A stretch of 39,300 nucleotides of DNA from sequence record NC_047808.1; one strand, written 5' to 3'. Shown in pieces: positions 6,801 through 33,696 of the stretch. The translations under genes were made by a program, and so were the position numbers. Origin of the DNA: Escherichia phage vB_EcoP_F. How positions within the stretch are numbered: the stretch's first letter is position 1; each line of letters begins with the position of its first letter. The notes under the pieces are model-generated. The model did not search any database, was not told the origin of the DNA, and saw only the letters and a list, made by a program, of their open reading frames with translations.

Positions 6801-6833
6801 CCAGTCTAACCTACTGTTTTACAAGGAGTTTGG

Positions 6834-6856
6834 ACTTAACTATCACTATAGGGAAG
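6834..6856 (+). promoter_or_regulatory. phage RNA polymerase promoter (phiOR position), ACTTAACTATCACTATAGGGAAG
   Basis: Consensus match; located after gene 19 as T7 phiOR. Confidence 0.75.
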
Positions 6857-7035: not shown

Positions 7036-7194
7036 ATGGCAAAGACCAAAGCTGTACTTAAAGCTCTGGCTACCAATCGAGCTACATACAGGTTTCTTGC
7101 TGCTGTTCTACTTGCTGCTGGCGTTACTGCTGGAAGTAAGTGGGTCGGGTGGGTCGAGACTCTCGTATGTTCTCTGGTGTCTCAGTGCAATTAA
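7036..7194 (+). CDS. gp19.5-like small membrane protein
   Basis: 52 aa (MAKTKAVLKALATNRATYRFLAAVLLAAGV..); GGAGG RBS at 7021..7025; resembles recalled T7 gp19.5 (RVTYRFL motif); last gene before genome end. Confidence 0.5.
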   Translation: MAKTKAVLKALATNRATYRFLAAVLLAAGVTAGSKWVGWVETLVCSLVSQCN

Positions 7195-7309: not shown

Positions 7310-7356
7310 AGCTAAGGTCAGTACGTGGATAAAGACTCACTCTACTGACCTTAGCT
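7310..7356 (+). promoter_or_regulatory. perfect 14-bp stem hairpin AGCTAAGGTCAGTA ... TACTGACCTTAGCT with 19-nt loop
   Basis: Exact inverted repeat 7310..7323 / 7343..7356 in the non-coding right-end region. Confidence 0.35.
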
Positions 7357-7517: not shown

Positions 7518-7715
7518 TCTCACAGTTCAAGAACCTCAAGTCTCCCCATAGGCCCTCTTTAAGTCCAGACCAAAGGCCCTACCCAGTCTATCATAAGGCT
7601 GGACCGATGGTCGACGATAGGTCTAGGCTATGGCTGGAGGTCAGGACGATAGGTAGGGACTATTGGTCTGTCTCTGAGTCTCTATCTGTATAGTGATATA
7701 GTATAACATTACGTC
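7518..7715 (+). other. predicted physical genome terminus and terminal-repeat region (single collapsed copy); left end predicted at 7518
   Basis: TCTCACAGTTCAAGAACC..CCCCATAGG at 7518 resembles recalled T7/T3 left-terminal sequence (TCTCACAG..); non-coding; flanked by short-repeat arrays; right boundary not determinable. Confidence 0.3.
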
Positions 7716-9461: not shown

Positions 9462-9721
9462 TGAAAACCGTATACATTAACAAACCATCTATCCGTAGCC
9501 GTGTAGAGCAAATACAGCGTGACGTGTTCTTACATCGCCGCATGGAGGCTGAGGGCCATAAGTCCGAACTGATGTGTCTGGCGTATGGTGGACGACCGAT
9601 CACTGAAGATGGTAAACTTTTAGTCTCAGGCTGGAAGGCGATAGACCAACGGTCAACCATCAAGCACACGACTAATGGTGACTTCAGCCATCTCCACGCT
9701 AACCCACTGATATGCAAGTGA
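9461..9721 (+). CDS. hypothetical early protein, 86 aa
   Basis: Track ORF; GGGAG RBS; ATGA overlap with upstream ORF. Confidence 0.5.
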   Translation: MKTVYINKPSIRSRVEQIQRDVFLHRRMEAEGHKSELMCLAYGGRPITEDGKLLVSGWKAIDQRSTIKHTTNGDFSHLHANPLICK

Positions 9722-24085: not shown

Positions 24086-24137
24086 GTCTAGCCGATAGTC
24101 ATATCCTATCAATCCAACAGTCATCCATAGGTGAAAC

Positions 24138-24160
24138 ACTAAACTATCACTATAGGGACT
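24138..24160 (+). promoter_or_regulatory. phage RNA polymerase promoter (phi6.5 position), ACTAAACTATCACTATAGGGACT
   Basis: Full consensus, GGG start (late class). Confidence 0.75.
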
Positions 24161-24221
24161 TTAGGACCTAAGATATGACTATAAGATAGACTTTAGTCTT
24201 AACTTAAAGAGGAGATTCAAG

Positions 24222-25142: not shown

Positions 25143-25383
25143 ATCAATCAGTAAGGCATTCAAGAAAGTGGTGAAAAGTACGCTAGGGACCGTTGGTCTT
25201 GGCTCTGATGACGCACCTAAGGTTGTTGAGGCTCAGACCCCAGCAGCACCAGTGGAAGTACCGAACGACAAAGTGGAGGATGTGGATACTGAAACAACCG
25301 CATCTGACGAGAAGAAAGTGAAGCGTTCCGGTAAGCGTAGCCTTCAGGTCTCTCGTACCTCTGGTGGCGGTATTTCTATTTAA
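25135..25383 (+). CDS. gp7.3-like tail/adsorption protein
   Basis: 82 aa; C-terminus SLQVSRTSGGGISI matches recalled T7 gp7.3. Confidence 0.65.
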   Translation: MGKSISKAFKKVVKSTLGTVGLGSDDAPKVVEAQTPAAPVEVPNDKVEDVDTETTASDEKKVKRSGKRSLQVSRTSGGGISI

Positions 25384-25394
25384 GGAGGTGACGA

Positions 25395-26963
25395 ATGGCT
25401 GAACGTGAAGGGTTCGCTGCTGAAGGAGCCAAAGCGGTCTATGACCGACTGAAGAACGGTAGACAGCCATATGAGACACGCGCTCAGAACTGTGCTGCTG
25501 TCACTATCCCGTCACTGTTTCCTAAGGAGTCCGACAACTCGTCTACTGAGTACACAACTCCGTGGCAAGCTGTAGGTGCTCGCTGTTTGAACAACTTGGC
25601 TGCAAAGCTGATGCTGGCATTATTCCCTCAGTCACCGTGGATGCGACTTACAGTCTCCGAATATGAGGCCAAGACCTTGAGTCAGGACTCAGAGGCTGCT
25701 GCTCGTGTTGACGAAGGGCTTGCTATGGTCGAGCGTGTGTTGATGGCCTACATGGAGACTAACAGTTTCCGTGTGCCATTGTTCGAAGCTCTGAAGCAGC
25801 TTATCGTCTCCGGTAACTGTCTGCTTTACATTCCAGAGCCTGAACAGGGTACTTACAGTCCTATGCGAATGTACCGCTTAGTGTCCTACGTTGTTCAACG
25901 TGATGCTTTCGGTAATATCTTGCAGATTGTGACTCTCGACAAGGTAGCGTTTAGTGCTCTACCGGAAGACGTTAAGTCACAACTCAACGCAGACGACTAT
26001 GAGCCTGACACAGAGCTGGAAGTATATACGCACATCTACCGTCAAGACGACGAGTATCTACGTTATGAGGAAGTGGAAGGCATTGAGGTGGCAGGGACCG
26101 AGGGTTCCTACCCACTGACTGCATGTCCATACATCCCGGTACGAATGGTTCGACTGGATGGTGAAGACTATGGTCGTTCTTACTGCGAGGAGTATCTGGG
26201 AGACCTGAACTCGCTGGAGACGATTACAGAAGCTATCACCAAAATGGCTAAGGTAGCCTCCAAGGTGGTGGGCCTCGTTAACCCGAACGGTATCACGCAA
26301 CCTCGTCGTCTGAACAAGGCGGCTACAGGTGAGTTCGTTGCCGGTCGCGTTGAGGACATCAACTTCCTGCAACTGACTAAGGGTCAGGACTTTACGATTG
26401 CCAAGTCGGTGGCTGATGCTATCGAGCAACGTTTAGGCTGGGCCTTCCTTCTTAATAGTGCTGTTCAGCGTAATGCCGAGCGAGTCACTGCTGAAGAGAT
26501 TCGTTATGTTGCTGGCGAACTGGAGGCGACCTTAGGTGGCGTGTACTCAGTACAATCCCAAGAGCTTCAGTTACCTATCGTCCGTGTGCTGATGAACCAA
26601 CTTCAGTCTGCTGGCATGATTCCTGACCTTCCGAAAGAAGCGGTAGAGCCTACTGTCTCCACTGGTCTGGAAGCGTTAGGTCGTGGTCAGGACTTGGAGA
26701 AGCTAACTCAGGCGGTTAACATGATGACTGGTCTTCAGCCGCTATCTCAGGACCCGGACATCAACTTGCCGACCCTTAAGCTACGACTCCTGAACGCTCT
26801 GGGCATCGACACCGCTGGCCTACTCCTGACGCAAGACGAGAAGATTCAGCGCATGGCTGAGCAGTCGTCTCAACAGGCAGTTGTCCAAGGTGCTAGTGCT
26901 GCTGGTGCTAACATGGGTGCTGCTGTAGGTCAGGGAGCTGGTGAGGACATGGCTCAAGCCTAA
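25395..26963 (+). CDS. head-tail connector (portal) protein gp8
   Basis: 522 aa; position and size as T7 gp8; AGGAGG RBS. Confidence 0.9.
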   Translation: MAEREGFAAEGAKAVYDRLKNGRQPYETRAQNCAAVTIPSLFPKESDNSSTEYTTPWQAVGARCLNNLAAKLMLALFPQSPWMRLTVSEYEAKTLSQDSEAAARVDEGLAMVERVLMAYMETNSFRVPLFEALKQLIVSGNCLLYIPEPEQGTYSPMRMYRLVSYVVQRDAFGNILQIVTLDKVAFSALPEDVKSQLNADDYEPDTELEVYTHIYRQDDEYLRYEEVEGIEVAGTEGSYPLTACPYIPVRMVRLDGEDYGRSYCEEYLGDLNSLETITEAITKMAKVASKVVGLVNPNGITQPRRLNKAATGEFVAGRVEDINFLQLTKGQDFTIAKSVADAIEQRLGWAFLLNSAVQRNAERVTAEEIRYVAGELEATLGGVYSVQSQELQLPIVRVLMNQLQSAGMIPDLPKEAVEPTVSTGLEALGRGQDLEKLTQAVNMMTGLQPLSQDPDINLPTLKLRLLNALGIDTAGLLLTQDEKIQRMAEQSSQQAVVQGASAAGANMGAAVGQGAGEDMAQA

Positions 26964-27071: not shown

Positions 27072-27956
27072 ATGTCTCAATCAGTTTATGCCGAGTTCGG
27101 CGTTAGCTCTAATGCAATCACTGGTTCCGTTGAGGACCTGAACGAACACCAGAAGTCTATGCTTGAACAGGACGTAGCTGTTCGTGATGGCGATGACGCT
27201 ATTACCTTCAAGCAACTGGAAGCCGAAAACGAAGAGGCGACCGAAGAAGACGAGAACGTCGAAGAGACTGGGGGTGATGAAGACAACGAGTCCGATGACG
27301 AAGAGTCGGAGGACGATGGTGAGCAGCCTGAGTTCATCGAACTGGGTGATGCACCGAAAGATCTGACCGAAAGTGTCACCGCTCTGGATGAAAACGAAGC
27401 TGCATTTGACGACATGGTGTCTTCTGCTGTAGAAGCTGGCAAGGTCACTGCTGATGAAATTACCGCTATCAAGGCTGAATACGCCAAGGACGGTAAGCTG
27501 TCTGACGCATCCTACGCTAAGTTGCAGGAAGCAGGTTACACCAAGCGCTTCGTAGATTCGTTTGTCCGTGGTCAGGAAGCTCTGGCTGAACAGTATGCCG
27601 CTGGTGTGGTTCGCTACGCTGGTGGTGCTGAACAGTTTAATCGCATCCTGTCACACCTTGAGGCCAACGACCCGTCAACTCGTGAAGCACTGGAAGCTGC
27701 TATCGTTCGTAAGGACATTGCGACTACCAAAGCTCTGCTGAATCTGGCTGGCAAGACTCTGGGTAAAGCTGTGGGTGTTAAACCTCAGCGTACCATCACC
27801 ACTCAGGCTAAACCTGTGGTCGCACCTAAGGCTCCTCAGACCGAAGCATTCAGCTCCAAGGCTGACATGATTAAGGCTATGAGTGACCCGCGATACCTGC
27901 GTGACGCTAAGTACACGATGGAAGTTCGCGCTAAGGTAGCCGCCTCAAGCCTGTAG
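27072..27956 (+). CDS. capsid assembly (scaffolding) protein gp9
   Basis: Start set to ATG 27072 (AAAGGAG RBS); acidic; SYAKLQEAGYTKRFVDSFVRGQEAL and KAMSDPRY match recalled T7 gp9. Confidence 0.85.
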   Translation: MSQSVYAEFGVSSNAITGSVEDLNEHQKSMLEQDVAVRDGDDAITFKQLEAENEEATEEDENVEETGGDEDNESDDEESEDDGEQPEFIELGDAPKDLTESVTALDENEAAFDDMVSSAVEAGKVTADEITAIKAEYAKDGKLSDASYAKLQEAGYTKRFVDSFVRGQEALAEQYAAGVVRYAGGAEQFNRILSHLEANDPSTREALEAAIVRKDIATTKALLNLAGKTLGKAVGVKPQRTITTQAKPVVAPKAPQTEAFSSKADMIKAMSDPRYLRDAKYTMEVRAKVAASSL

Positions 27957-29256: not shown

Positions 29257-29262
29257 TTGAAA

Positions 29263-29299
29263 CCCCTTGGGTGCCTTCGGGTGCCTGAGGGGTTTTTTT
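29263..29299 (+). terminator. intrinsic terminator (Tphi position): CCCCTTGGGTGCC-UUCG-GGTGCCTGAGGGG + T7
   Basis: 13-bp stem (with G-U pairs), UUCG tetraloop, seven T residues; directly after capsid gene. Confidence 0.8.
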
Positions 29300-29318
29300 G
29301 CTTAAAGTGAGGATGATT

Positions 29319-30219: not shown

Positions 30220-32577
30220 ATGCCACTAATTACTCAATCAATCAAGAACCTTAAAGGTGGCATTAGCCAACAGCCTGATATACTGAGGTTCTCAGACCAA
30301 GGCGAGGCACAGGTTAACTGCTGGTCATCCGAGAGTGATGGCCTCCAGAAGCGCCCACCTACAGTCTTCAAGCGACGTCTTAACATCGACGTTGGGAGCA
30401 ACCCTAAGTTCCACCTGATTAACCGTGACGAGCATGAGCAGTATTACATCGTGTTCAATGGGTCCAACATTCAGGTAGTTGACTTGAGTGGTAATCAATA
30501 CTCAGTGTCAGGTGCGGTAGACTACGTTAAGTCCTCCAACCCACGAGATGACATCCGTGTCGTTACCGTGGCAGACTATACGTTCGTCGTTAACCGTAAG
30601 GTTGTCGTCAAAGGTGGAAGCGAGAAGTCACACTCTGGTTATAACCGCAAAGCACGAGCTTTAATTAACCTGCGTGGTGGACAGTATGGTCGAACCCTTA
30701 AGGTGGGAATCAACGGTGGCGTTAAGGTCTCGCATAAGCTACCAGCAGGTAATGATGCCGAGAATGACCCGCCTAAGGTGGACGCTCAAGCCATTGGTGC
30801 AGCTCTGAGAGACCTTCTTGTTACTGCCTACCCTACCTTCACGTTTGACCTTGGGTCTGGATTCCTGCTAATCACAGCTCCTTCAGGGACCGATATTAAC
30901 TCAGTGGAGACGGAGGATGGCTACGCTAACCAGCTAATAAGCCCAGTCCTAGACACTGTGCAGACAATCTCTAAACTACCTCTTGCCGCTCCTAATGGGT
31001 ATATCATTAAGATTCAAGGTGAGACAAACAGTAGCGCCGATGAATACTACGTGATGTATGACTCCAACACTAAGACGTGGAAGGAGACAGTGGAGCCGGG
31101 AGTTGTCACTGGGTTCGATGTCACCACAATGCCACATGCTCTGGTAAGACAGTCTGACGGCTCCTTTGAGTTCAAGACTCTGGATTGGTCCAAGCGTGGT
31201 TCTGGTAACGATGACACAAACCCTATGCCTAGCTTCGTGGATGCTGCGATTAATGATGTGTTCTTCTACAGGAACAGACTTGGGTTCTTGTCGGGTGAGA
31301 ACGTAATCATGAGCCGTTCAGCCAGCTACTTTTCGTTCTTCCCTAAGAGTGTGGCGACACTGAGTGATGATGACCCTATTGATGTAGCTGTAAGTCACCC
31401 TCGAATCTCAATCCTTAAGTATGCCGTTCCGTTTAGCGAGCAGCTACTACTTTGGTCGGATGAGGTTCAGTTCGTGATGACAAGCTCTGGGGTCCTTACC
31501 TCGAAGTCTATCCAGCTTGATGTAGGCTCAGAGTTTGCCTTAGGCGACAATGCCAGACCGTTCGCTGTAGGACGCTCAGTCTTCTTCTCAGCTCCTCGTG
31601 GGTCATTCACCAGCATTAAGCGATACTTCGCTGTAGCTGATGTGTCTGATGTGAAGGATGCTGATGATACAACCGGTCACGTATTGTCCTACATCCCTAA
31701 CGGGGTGTTTGATATTCAAGGTACAGGGACTGAGAACTACATCTGCGTCAACTCTACAGGTGCATACAACCGTATCTACATCTACAAGTTCTTGTTTAAG
31801 GACGGCGTACAGCTTCAAGCCTCTTGGTCACACTGGGAGTTCCCTAAAGATGATAAGATTCTGGCGTCTGCTTCTATTGGCTCTACCATGTTCATCGTTC
31901 GTCAGCATCAAGGAGGGGTAGACATTGAGCACCTTAAGTTCATCAAGGAGGCAACTGACTTCCCGTCAGAGCCATATAGACTACACATTGACTCCAAGGT
32001 GTCTATGGTAATTCCAATTGGCTCATATAATGCTGACACCTATAAGACTACGGTTGACATTGGTGCTGCTTATGGTGGCAACGCTCCGTCTCCCGGTCGG
32101 TACTATCTGATTGACAGTCAGGGTGCTTATGTGGACCTTGGGGACTTGACCAGTATCTCTACTGTGATTACCCTCAACGGCGATTGGTCAGGACGTACAG
32201 TGTTCATCGGACGGCCCTATCTGATGTCCTACAAGTTCTCACGGTTCCTGATTAAGATTGAAGATGATAGGGGCACTCAGTCTGAAGACACTGGTCGTCT
32301 ACAGCTTCGTCGGGCCTGGGTCAACTACAAGGACACTGGCGCTCTGAGACTCATTGTCAGAAACGGTGAGCGAGAGTTCGTTAACACCTTTAATGGGTAC
32401 ACCCTTGGTCAGCAAACCATAGGGACTACTAACATTGGTGACGGGCAGTATCGCTTCGCTATGAATGGTAACGCATTAACCACGAGTCTAACCTTAGAGT
32501 CCGACTATCCTACCCCAGTGTCCATCGTTGGGTGTGGCTGGGAGGCATCATACGCTAAGAAAGCTCGTTCAGTCTAA
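30220..32577 (+). CDS. tail tubular protein B gp12
   Basis: 785 aa; position and size as T7 gp12; AGGAGGG RBS. Confidence 0.9.
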   Translation: MPLITQSIKNLKGGISQQPDILRFSDQGEAQVNCWSSESDGLQKRPPTVFKRRLNIDVGSNPKFHLINRDEHEQYYIVFNGSNIQVVDLSGNQYSVSGAVDYVKSSNPRDDIRVVTVADYTFVVNRKVVVKGGSEKSHSGYNRKARALINLRGGQYGRTLKVGINGGVKVSHKLPAGNDAENDPPKVDAQAIGAALRDLLVTAYPTFTFDLGSGFLLITAPSGTDINSVETEDGYANQLISPVLDTVQTISKLPLAAPNGYIIKIQGETNSSADEYYVMYDSNTKTWKETVEPGVVTGFDVTTMPHALVRQSDGSFEFKTLDWSKRGSGNDDTNPMPSFVDAAINDVFFYRNRLGFLSGENVIMSRSASYFSFFPKSVATLSDDDPIDVAVSHPRISILKYAVPFSEQLLLWSDEVQFVMTSSGVLTSKSIQLDVGSEFALGDNARPFAVGRSVFFSAPRGSFTSIKRYFAVADVSDVKDADDTTGHVLSYIPNGVFDIQGTGTENYICVNSTGAYNRIYIYKFLFKDGVQLQASWSHWEFPKDDKILASASIGSTMFIVRQHQGGVDIEHLKFIKEATDFPSEPYRLHIDSKVSMVIPIGSYNADTYKTTVDIGAAYGGNAPSPGRYYLIDSQGAYVDLGDLTSISTVITLNGDWSGRTVFIGRPYLMSYKFSRFLIKIEDDRGTQSEDTGRLQLRRAWVNYKDTGALRLIVRNGEREFVNTFNGYTLGQQTIGTTNIGDGQYRFAMNGNALTTSLTLESDYPTPVSIVGCGWEASYAKKARSV

Positions 32578-32584
32578 CTTATTG

Positions 32585-32634
32585 AAGGGCCTATAGATTT
32601 ACCTTAACTATCACTATAGGGACTATAGGCCCTT
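32585..32634 (+). promoter_or_regulatory. perfect 12-bp inverted repeat (AAGGGCCTATAG / CTATAGGCCCTT) enclosing the phi13 promoter; candidate RNase III site R13
   Basis: Arms at 32585..32596 and 32623..32634 seen directly. Confidence 0.4.
32602..32624 (+). promoter_or_regulatory. phage RNA polymerase promoter (phi13 position), CCTTAACTATCACTATAGGGACT
   Basis: Consensus match, GGG start. Confidence 0.75.
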
Positions 32635-32653
32635 AAGGTTATAAGGAGACTTT

Positions 32654-33124
32654 ATGTATATTCGCAAGGCTACGGAACCGGATGTCCACTACTTTCTGTG
32701 GCATCTTTCAGCAGATGATGTTAATGAGTGCAAAGCAAACTATGGGTCAACCGTTGGTCTCTCTGAAAGACTGCTTAAGCACCTATCTCCGTCATCTGTG
32801 GTTTTAACGAACGGTGTAGGCGAAGTGTTTGCCTATGGTGGAAACCAAGGGGATAACGTATGGTTCTTGACTTCCGGTCTGGTCTATAAGCTGAGACCTA
32901 AAGAGAAGCGAGAGTTCATAAAGCGTATCTCTGAGTACAGGGACTTAATGTTAGACCAATACGGGACCATCTGGAACTACGTGTGGTCAGGCAATAAGTC
33001 TCACATTAAATTCTTGAAGTTGCTTGGGGCTAAGTTCCATGATGATTGGACTATCAGCCCGGTAACTGGTGAGCGTTTTCAATTATTCACTATCTCTAAG
33101 GAGGACGTATGTGTGAACCCGTAA
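32654..33124 (+). CDS. internal virion protein gp13
   Basis: 156 aa; NYVWSGNKSHIKFLKLLGAKFHDD resembles recalled T7 gp13; AGGAG RBS. Confidence 0.7.
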   Translation: MYIRKATEPDVHYFLWHLSADDVNECKANYGSTVGLSERLLKHLSPSSVVLTNGVGEVFAYGGNQGDNVWFLTSGLVYKLRPKEKREFIKRISEYRDLMLDQYGTIWNYVWSGNKSHIKFLKLLGAKFHDDWTISPVTGERFQLFTISKEDVCVNP

Positions 33125-33696
33125 GTATCGGCATGGGTATCATGGCTGTAGCCGGGGCCACTATGTCCGCATCCCAGCAGGCCAAGGCCGAAGGTGCAGC
33201 AATTGACGCTCAGAACCGACAGGCTCAGGAAATGGTTAAGCAGATGAACTACTCTGACGCCAACCTGAAGATGCAGGAGCGAGACCTGAAGGAGCAGCAG
33301 ATGGCTGAACTGACAGAGACCACGCTCAACGGTATACGAAATCAGGGTATGGTCAGAGCTGCGGTAGCTGAGTCTGGTTTGGAAGGTAACTCTATGGACA
33401 GGATTGAACGTCAGGTCGAAGGAGATACAGTCAAGGAGCGAGCAGGGATTACCGAAAGTTACAACCGCGACTATGCGGCTATCTTCGGGAACCGTATCGC
33501 CAACATTGAGAACACCAAGTCTGCTATCCGTGGTCAAGGTAAAATCATCAAGACCAGTCCACTGGCCCATGCACTTAATGTTGCTAACGCCGGGATGCAA
33601 GGTTACGCCGCTGGTAAGTCAATCTCTGGAGCGTCAAGCTCTGGTGATGCTGCACCAATTAGTGCTGCTAAAGGCACACCTACAGGTCATAGCTAA
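33109..33696 (+). CDS. internal virion protein gp14
   Basis: 195 aa (T7 gp14 196 aa); SMDRIERQVEG, YNRDYAAIFG, AAKGT motifs. Confidence 0.8.
   Translation: MCEPVSIGMGIMAVAGATMSASQQAKAEGAAIDAQNRQAQEMVKQMNYSDANLKMQERDLKEQQMAELTETTLNGIRNQGMVRAAVAESGLEGNSMDRIERQVEGDTVKERAGITESYNRDYAAIFGNRIANIENTKSAIRGQGKIIKTSPLAHALNVANAGMQGYAAGKSISGASSSGDAAPISAAKGTPTGHS

Follow-up and report, generated by a model that had tools for sequence, protein, structure and literature searches.

A phi13 promoter nested in an inverted repeat at the gene 12/13 junction of a K1F-type phage genome, a probable counterpart of the R13 processing signal of T7 and T3

The stretch of DNA analysed here (the window, 39,300 nucleotides) is a circularly permuted genome of a K1F-like Kayfunavirus, as established by comparison with phage K1F. 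A 2-kb query around the element described below matched 220 phage records, and the nearest of these is Escherichia phage vB_EcoP_FFK3 (Kayfunavirus, Studiervirinae). Positions 7518-7682 of the window are identical to both ends of K1F (positions 1-165 and 39540-39704), which puts the terminal repeat, and with it the physical ends of the genome, within the window. Two further records, MT350292 (Enterococcus phage EFA-1) and PV615262 (Acinetobacter phage vB_Aba_01KA), are 96-97% identical to the window over 2 kb; their host labels look doubtful.

The element lies in the short spacer between the genes for tail tubular protein B (gene 12) and internal virion protein A (gene 13), both identified from the list of open reading frames and from the annotation of the near-identical record ON548433. 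The features of the locus are as follows.

29260-29300, + strand: Tphi-type terminator downstream of gene 10 (17-bp G+C-rich hairpin, then UUUUUUU)
30220-32577, + strand: gene 12, tail tubular protein B, with the stop codon TAA at 32575-32577
32585-32596, + strand: 5' arm of the hairpin, AAGGGCCTATAG, at -34 to -23 from the phi13 start and outside the 23-bp promoter
32602-32624, + strand: phage RNA polymerase promoter phi13 (-17 to +6), a full 23-bp copy, with +1 at the G in position 32619
32613-32630, + strand: tandem 9-nt duplication, ACTATAGGG followed by ACTATAGGC; copy 1 is the promoter core and copy 2 makes up most of the 3' arm
32623-32634, + strand: 3' arm of the hairpin, CTATAGGCCCTT, at +5 to +16 of phi13 transcripts
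32654-33124, + strand: gene 13, internal virion protein A

A terminator is annotated in phage EcoDS1 at the place equivalent to 29260-29300. Genes 11 and 12 and the hairpin are reached solely by transcripts that read through this Tphi terminator.

The initial annotation described a perfect 12-bp inverted repeat at this position, and inspection of the sequence bears it out: the arms are 12 nt each, 100% complementary and spaced by 26 nt. The 39.3-kb window has just two perfect inverted repeats of 12 bp or more whose loop does not exceed 60 nt (32585-32634 and 7310-7323/7343-7356), against a chance level of 0.11 per genome on average; at least one such repeat was present in 9% of 300 dinucleotide-preserving shuffles. 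Folded as RNA, the 50-mer 32585-32634 reaches -20.4 kcal/mol (z = -3.8), and none of 200 shuffled sequences folds equally well. For the RNA of the gene 12/13 spacer z is -3.0 to -3.1, with 0-2 of 200 shuffles as good. A self-complementary hexamer of the promoter core, CTATAG, present three times here, accounts for six of the 12 stem pairs; the remaining six (AAGGGC/GCCCTT) are not self-complementary. The arm sequence has no second occurrence in the genome, and an Rfam scan of the whole window gave no matches at family gathering thresholds.

The other perfect repeat of the window, at 7310-7356, is 14 bp long (starting AGCTAAGGTCAGTA) with a 19-nt loop, and its RNA folds at -35.9 kcal/mol (z -3.6). 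It is located 3' of a small gene 19.5-like open reading frame (7036-7194), about 160 nt ahead of the terminal repeat.

Being stable and placed where gene 12 ends, the hairpin might act as a transcription terminator or pause site that halts read-through polymerases before they reach phi13. We consider this extremely unlikely, as there is no U-run 3' of the stem (the next sequence is UUAAGGUUAUAAGG), a 26-nt loop is unlike those of known terminators, and the genuine Tphi of this genome has the longer G+C-rich stem and the U7 listed above. A consensus scan for terminators over 32000-33200 made no call at the hairpin.

The hairpin loop had also been said to contain a promoter core. It does: TTTACCTTAACTATCACTATAGGGA is present there and fits the consensus common to ten sites of the window. 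T7-type promoters extend from -17 to +6, and over this length phi13, CCTTAACTATCACTATAGGGACT, agrees with the 23-bp consensus of the genome itself, (A/C)CT(A/T)AACTATCACTATAGG. The motif CACTATAGG, allowing at most one mismatch, occurs 19 times against 8.1 expected. A sequence identical to phi13 is annotated as 'promoter phi13' in EcoDS1 (25367-25389). The nine remaining promoters of the window all lack a comparable continuous helix around them. The positions +5 to +16 are not conserved across these nine promoters, so promoter function does not explain the invariance of the 3' arm reported below.

Two of the promoters, at 6844 and 9737, have a common upstream motif, CTAACC(T/C)ACTG, about 40 nt before the start (at about 6805-6815 and 9698-9708), which is absent from the other promoters of the window.

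The 3' arm originates from the tandem duplication of the promoter core: the second copy supplies the arm, and as a result the entire promoter is placed within the loop. In IMG/VR, the duplicated core motif is found once per genome and is confined to Kayfunavirus contigs, apart from four unrelated coding hits; this pattern scan returned the same Kayfunavirus contigs and thus added no stem variation. The start site at 32619 falls between the arms, so that RNA initiated at phi13 is without the 5' arm and the helix can form solely in RNA begun upstream of phi13. The proposal that the structure is limited to read-through transcripts therefore stands.

The conservation of the element was analysed within the genus. 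The 87-nt spacer was found in 219 records, 105 of them, K1F included, with at least 99% identity. Within Kayfunavirus the hairpin arms have diverged less than the coding DNA beside them: the 5' arm is 83-100% (mostly 92%) identical to that of the window, compared with 72-76% for the last 90 nt of gene 12 in the same sequences, and the 3' arm is 100% identical in 19 of 20 other Kayfunavirus-type sequences. The 9-bp core of the stem, GGCCUAUAG/CUAUAGGCC, is nearly invariant, and for this reason the counting of pairs within the genus gives no covariation. The perfect 12 bp are specific to the K1F sublineage. Most other Kayfunavirus relatives have the 9-bp core together with one mismatch and two A-U pairs, or a stem that is extended inward instead: to 13 bp in the divergent member Kc166A, and to 15 bp in the likewise divergent Ro103C3lw, where it reaches -3 of the promoter and one outer pair is lost. 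In one IMG/VR contig (L021) the layout is T7-like, with an upstream arm that pairs with the promoter core. A locus search with the C-terminus of gp12 yielded nothing beyond the same close relatives.

These data bear on the simplest explanation, namely that the repeat has no function and arose as a by-product when 9 nt of the promoter core with its palindrome CTATAG were duplicated in tandem and the adjoining bases happened to match. In its favour, self-complementarity accounts for half of the stem, the tandem copy is evident, and the core shows no covariation inside the genus. This explanation is nevertheless very improbable in our view. The 5' arm is outside the promoter and yet more conserved than the neighbouring coding DNA, and the 3' arm is invariant although the corresponding positions vary among other promoters. 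Other Kayfunavirus lineages, moreover, rebuild the stem with different pairs, and hairpins with different sequences are present at the same junction in seven other genera (see below).

The loop itself is variable in one respect. The arms are kept around three promoter specificity sequences, the K1F type, ACACCCTCACTATAGGGA (contigs L019, L022, L079 and L080) and TTTAACACTCACTATAGGGA (L025 and L039). The presence of three such sequences between identical arms points to differing polymerase specificities in the genus and to replacement of the -22 to -8 segment only. A second kind of exchange is suggested by EcoDS1, in which positions 310-413 of the extracted locus (L038) are identical to 32563-32666 of the window and span the gene 12/13 spacer. 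The gene 13 product of EcoDS1 has 67% protein identity to that of the window, and the first 90 nt of the gene 66% identity; an identical spacer next to a diverged gp13 places a mosaic boundary at or just after the promoter.

The same junction was then compared between genera of the T7 group, the spacer being defined as the sequence from the gene 12 stop to the gene 13 start and each phage being folded separately rather than in one alignment. A sense-strand hairpin overlapping the promoter is found at this junction in T7, T3, K11, Berlinvirus, Jarilovirus, Ningirsuvirus and gh-1. The z scores of the spacer folds are -4.4 for T7, -5.2 for K11, -6.4 for Serratia phage KKP 3708, -3.6 for Berlinvirus PYPS50, -4.9 for Jarilo, -3.0 for NahiliMali and -2.0 for gh-1; the intergenic folds of T3 and of contig L021 are no better than those of shuffled sequences (z -1.0 and -0.7, respectively). 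The arms are unrelated between genera, for example UUCUCCCUGUGGUGG, AGGUUGGGUUAGUAGUG and ACCCUAUG.CUUUCCA, each being complementary to its own promoter core and start region. Such divergence of the arm sequences with retention of pairing, often by G-U pairs, argues for an RNA structure. In Pasteurella phage GXMP-H1, Providencia phage PSTRCR_120 and Vibrio phage ICP3 there is no usable spacer before gene 13 and no such element, which indicates that the element does not reach these distant relatives.

When the two strands are compared, the sense RNA has the greater stability in 13 of 14 phages, with a margin of up to 12.7 kcal/mol. This advantage is due to the G-U pairs of the stems and points to RNA on the transcribed strand and not to a DNA cruciform. 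A role at the level of DNA has to be weighed all the same. Under this explanation the repeat might form a cruciform or a hairpin in single-stranded DNA, be bound by a protein as a palindrome, belong to a secondary replication origin connected with phi13, or mark a junction at which promoter cassettes are exchanged by recombination. Some T7 promoters, phi13 included, have been reported as secondary replication origins. The stem of the window is entirely Watson-Crick and accordingly folds equally well on either DNA strand (-11.4 and -10.6 kcal/mol), and the promoter specificity cassettes do differ between identical flanks. On the other side, a 26-nt spacer is strongly unfavourable to cruciform extrusion, the G-U pairs in the stems of the relatives would turn into mismatches at the DNA level or in the opposite strand, the sense RNA is the more stable one in nearly all phages, and the arm sequence is not repeated elsewhere in the genome. 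One published observation favours a DNA-level role: the Lamassu system DdmABC recognizes, as DNA, palindromes derived from T7 RNase III sites (PMC11707656). Taken with the points against it, a DNA-level role seems to us very unlikely to be the main explanation.

In the RNA the 12-bp helix is predicted not to stand alone. The MFE and centroid folds of 32560-32660 place two additional short helices below it.

32571-32582, + strand: predicted 5' strand of the lower helices (AGUCU and CUUAU), covering the gene 12 stop
32641-32651, + strand: predicted 3' strand of the lower helices, holding the gene 13 Shine-Dalgarno sequence AAGGAG (32643-32648)

An alternative register is also predicted, in which 32576-32580 pair with 32636-32640. 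The helix as a whole would thus comprise 12 continuous bp and a predicted 5 + 5 bp (or the alternative 5 bp) across internal loops. The predicted lower helices are partly conserved in Kayfunavirus, with 80-92% of cells paired. The predicted probability that the Shine-Dalgarno sequence is unpaired is 0.18-0.22 in read-through RNA versus 0.47-0.61 in phi13-initiated RNA; for RNA cut inside the 3' arm or beyond it, the prediction is 0.31-0.72. RNA initiated at phi13 has a leader with unusually little structure (z +1.65). This difference in exposure, together with the open leader, makes an effect of the hairpin on the translation of gene 13 possible on the basis of the predicted folds.

A subset of the Kayfunavirus contigs (L012, L014, L016, L020, L022 and L024) carries a 10-nt insertion, ATACTTTAAG or a variant of it, directly upstream of the gene 13 ribosome-binding site. 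With it comes a repeat of the TAAG predicted to pair in the lower helix.

Two explanations invoke an RNA structure in read-through transcripts, and they differ in whether it is a substrate of RNase III. If it is not, the hairpin may block 3' exonucleases once the RNA has been cleaved in some other way, or it may be a switch that conceals the ribosome-binding site of gene 13 in read-through RNA; in the latter case translation of gene 13 would come chiefly from RNA started at phi13. The predicted pairing of the Shine-Dalgarno sequence in read-through RNA and the unusual openness of the phi13 leader are in line with this possibility, as are the weakness of R13 in T7 and the shortness of a 12-bp helix for RNase III (PMC1540722). 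Against it, the curated annotations at the same junction, in T3 and gh-1, name RNase III; the lower helices containing the Shine-Dalgarno sequence are the least conserved part of the structure, and T7 and K11 have no such pairing. We regard a structure unrelated to RNase III as unlikely, though less so than the explanations discussed above.

Our preferred explanation is that the repeat is a sense-strand RNA hairpin that corresponds, in Kayfunavirus, to the R13 RNase III signal of T7 and T3 and is built around the late promoter phi13. Judging from the sequence comparisons we consider this probable, short of certainty. Late transcripts from upstream promoters that pass Tphi and continue through genes 11 and 12 would contain both arms, and in this read-through RNA the 12-bp helix would form, probably stacked on the lower helices, which take in the stop codon of gene 12 and the ribosome-binding site of gene 13. 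A cut by host RNase III on the 3' side would follow. The gene 11-12 message would keep the hairpin as a protective 3' end, and the message from gene 13 onward would acquire a 5' end and an open leader similar to those of RNA started at phi13. RNA that starts at phi13 itself would have no 5' arm and would thus form no helix and undergo no processing.

What is known of the enzyme is in part favourable to this scheme. Substrates of E. coli RNase III typically span two helical turns, but stacked short helices can supply the length, and where there are internal loops a single strand is cut and a protective hairpin stays at the 3' end (PMC1540722). The uninterrupted helix of 12 bp corresponds to approximately one helical turn, versus about two in typical substrates (PMC1540722), and this counts against cleavage by RNase III. 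The weakness of R13 as an RNase III site in T7, the alternative register and imperfect conservation of the predicted lower helices, the lack of covariation in the 9-bp core, the use of separate folds in the comparison between genera and the unremarkable folds of T3 and L021 are likewise points against the R13-type explanation. No RNase III site is annotated here in the records of K1F and EcoDS1, the latter having none anywhere in its genome, and a literature search on RNase III sites, cleavage or transcript ends in K1F or Kayfunavirus, and on the overlap of phi13 and R13, found nothing specific.

The duplication may also have given the element a property of its own. By moving the 3' arm off the promoter core, the additional 9 nt could have converted the ancestral R13 hairpin into a sensor of transcript origin. 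The palindrome might also be read as DNA; we view both as speculative and rather unlikely. In a sensor of this type, read-through RNA would hide the gene 13 ribosome-binding site until it is cut by RNase III, and phi13-initiated RNA would always be open. Expression from gene 13 onward would then depend on the promoter of origin and on the activity of the host RNase III. Were the palindrome read as DNA, it would be a secondary replication origin or a trigger of palindrome-sensing defences such as Lamassu.

We judge the element to be real, conserved and functional, and most likely the K1F-type version of the known phi13/R13 pair of promoter and RNase III site. The concept of a promoter combined with a processing hairpin goes back to the first T7 and T3 genome analyses, and no new biological question is raised. 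The comparison shows that the design of a promoter within a putative processing hairpin at the gene 12/13 junction has been kept in at least eight T7-like genera despite differing sequences, and that Kayfunavirus, one large genus, has rebuilt it by duplicating nine promoter bases. There is also a practical aspect. In K1F-type phages used for therapy or display, the spacer should not be annotated or engineered as a plain promoter, as changes in the arms may alter the stability of the gene 11-12 RNA or the expression of gene 13.

Among the closest known systems is T3 (NC_003298), in which a stem_loop, 'RNase III recognition site R13' (25443-25480), encloses 'T3 promoter phi13' (25457-25479). The element of the window resembles it in its location from the stop codon of gene 12 to the start of gene 13, in the nested promoter, in the 5' arm upstream of +1 and in a hairpin that can be folded in read-through RNA alone. 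The T3 hairpin, which has a small loop, uses its promoter core and start region (about -8 to +7) as the 3' arm, and its arms are unrelated to those of the window. In the window, unlike T3, the 3' arm is a downstream duplicate at +5 to +16, and the 26-nt loop holds the entire promoter.

The T3 locus (L046) also has a run of 15 G, at about 1497-1511, between the R13/phi13 element and gene 13.

A comparison with R13 and phi13 of T7 had been proposed as a check, and it reveals the same position and the same logic. In T7, the upstream sequence UUCUCCCUGUGGUGG pairs with the promoter core and the first transcribed bases, CCACUAUAGGGAGAA, with +1 of phi13 at 27274. Dunn and Studier are said to have placed the R13 cut in 1983 a few bases downstream of the phi13 start, at about 27281. 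The T7 records NC_001604 and V01146 list phi13 and contain no RNase III features; among the RNase cleavage sites of T7, R13 is described as a weak RNase III site (PMC6938266, PMC5592923). The T7 stem is 15 bp with G-U pairs and uses the promoter core as an arm, and the core itself also forms an arm in K11, both unlike the window; in neither phage does the gene 13 Shine-Dalgarno sequence pair as predicted in the window.

In gh-1 (NC_004665), the stem_loop 'R11; putative RNase III recognition site' (24127-24187) overlaps the promoter phi15 (24146-24196). As in the window, the overlapping stem-loop and promoter lie between the genes for tail tube B and internal virion protein A. gh-1 differs in being a Pseudomonas phage with another promoter consensus, with the promoter core as an arm, and its site is a predicted annotation. 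Together with T3 and with the published weak site of T7, this record supports, by comparison, the suggestion of the initial annotation that the element may be a combined processing site and promoter.

The element can finally be compared with the early and late RNase III sites of T7, R1.1 for example, with which it shares the character of an intercistronic hairpin in polycistronic phage RNA. Its predicted arrangement of upper helix, internal loop and lower helix resembles that of substrates which receive a single cut and keep a hairpin at the 3' end (PMC1540722). Unlike the window element, these T7 sites are not wrapped around a promoter and extend over about two helical turns. The idea of a promoter paired with an RNase III site is thus known in the T7 group, and what differs here is the arm sequence and the use of a duplicated core as the 3' arm. 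We read this duplicated-core layout as a derived version of the design found in T7, T3 and K11.
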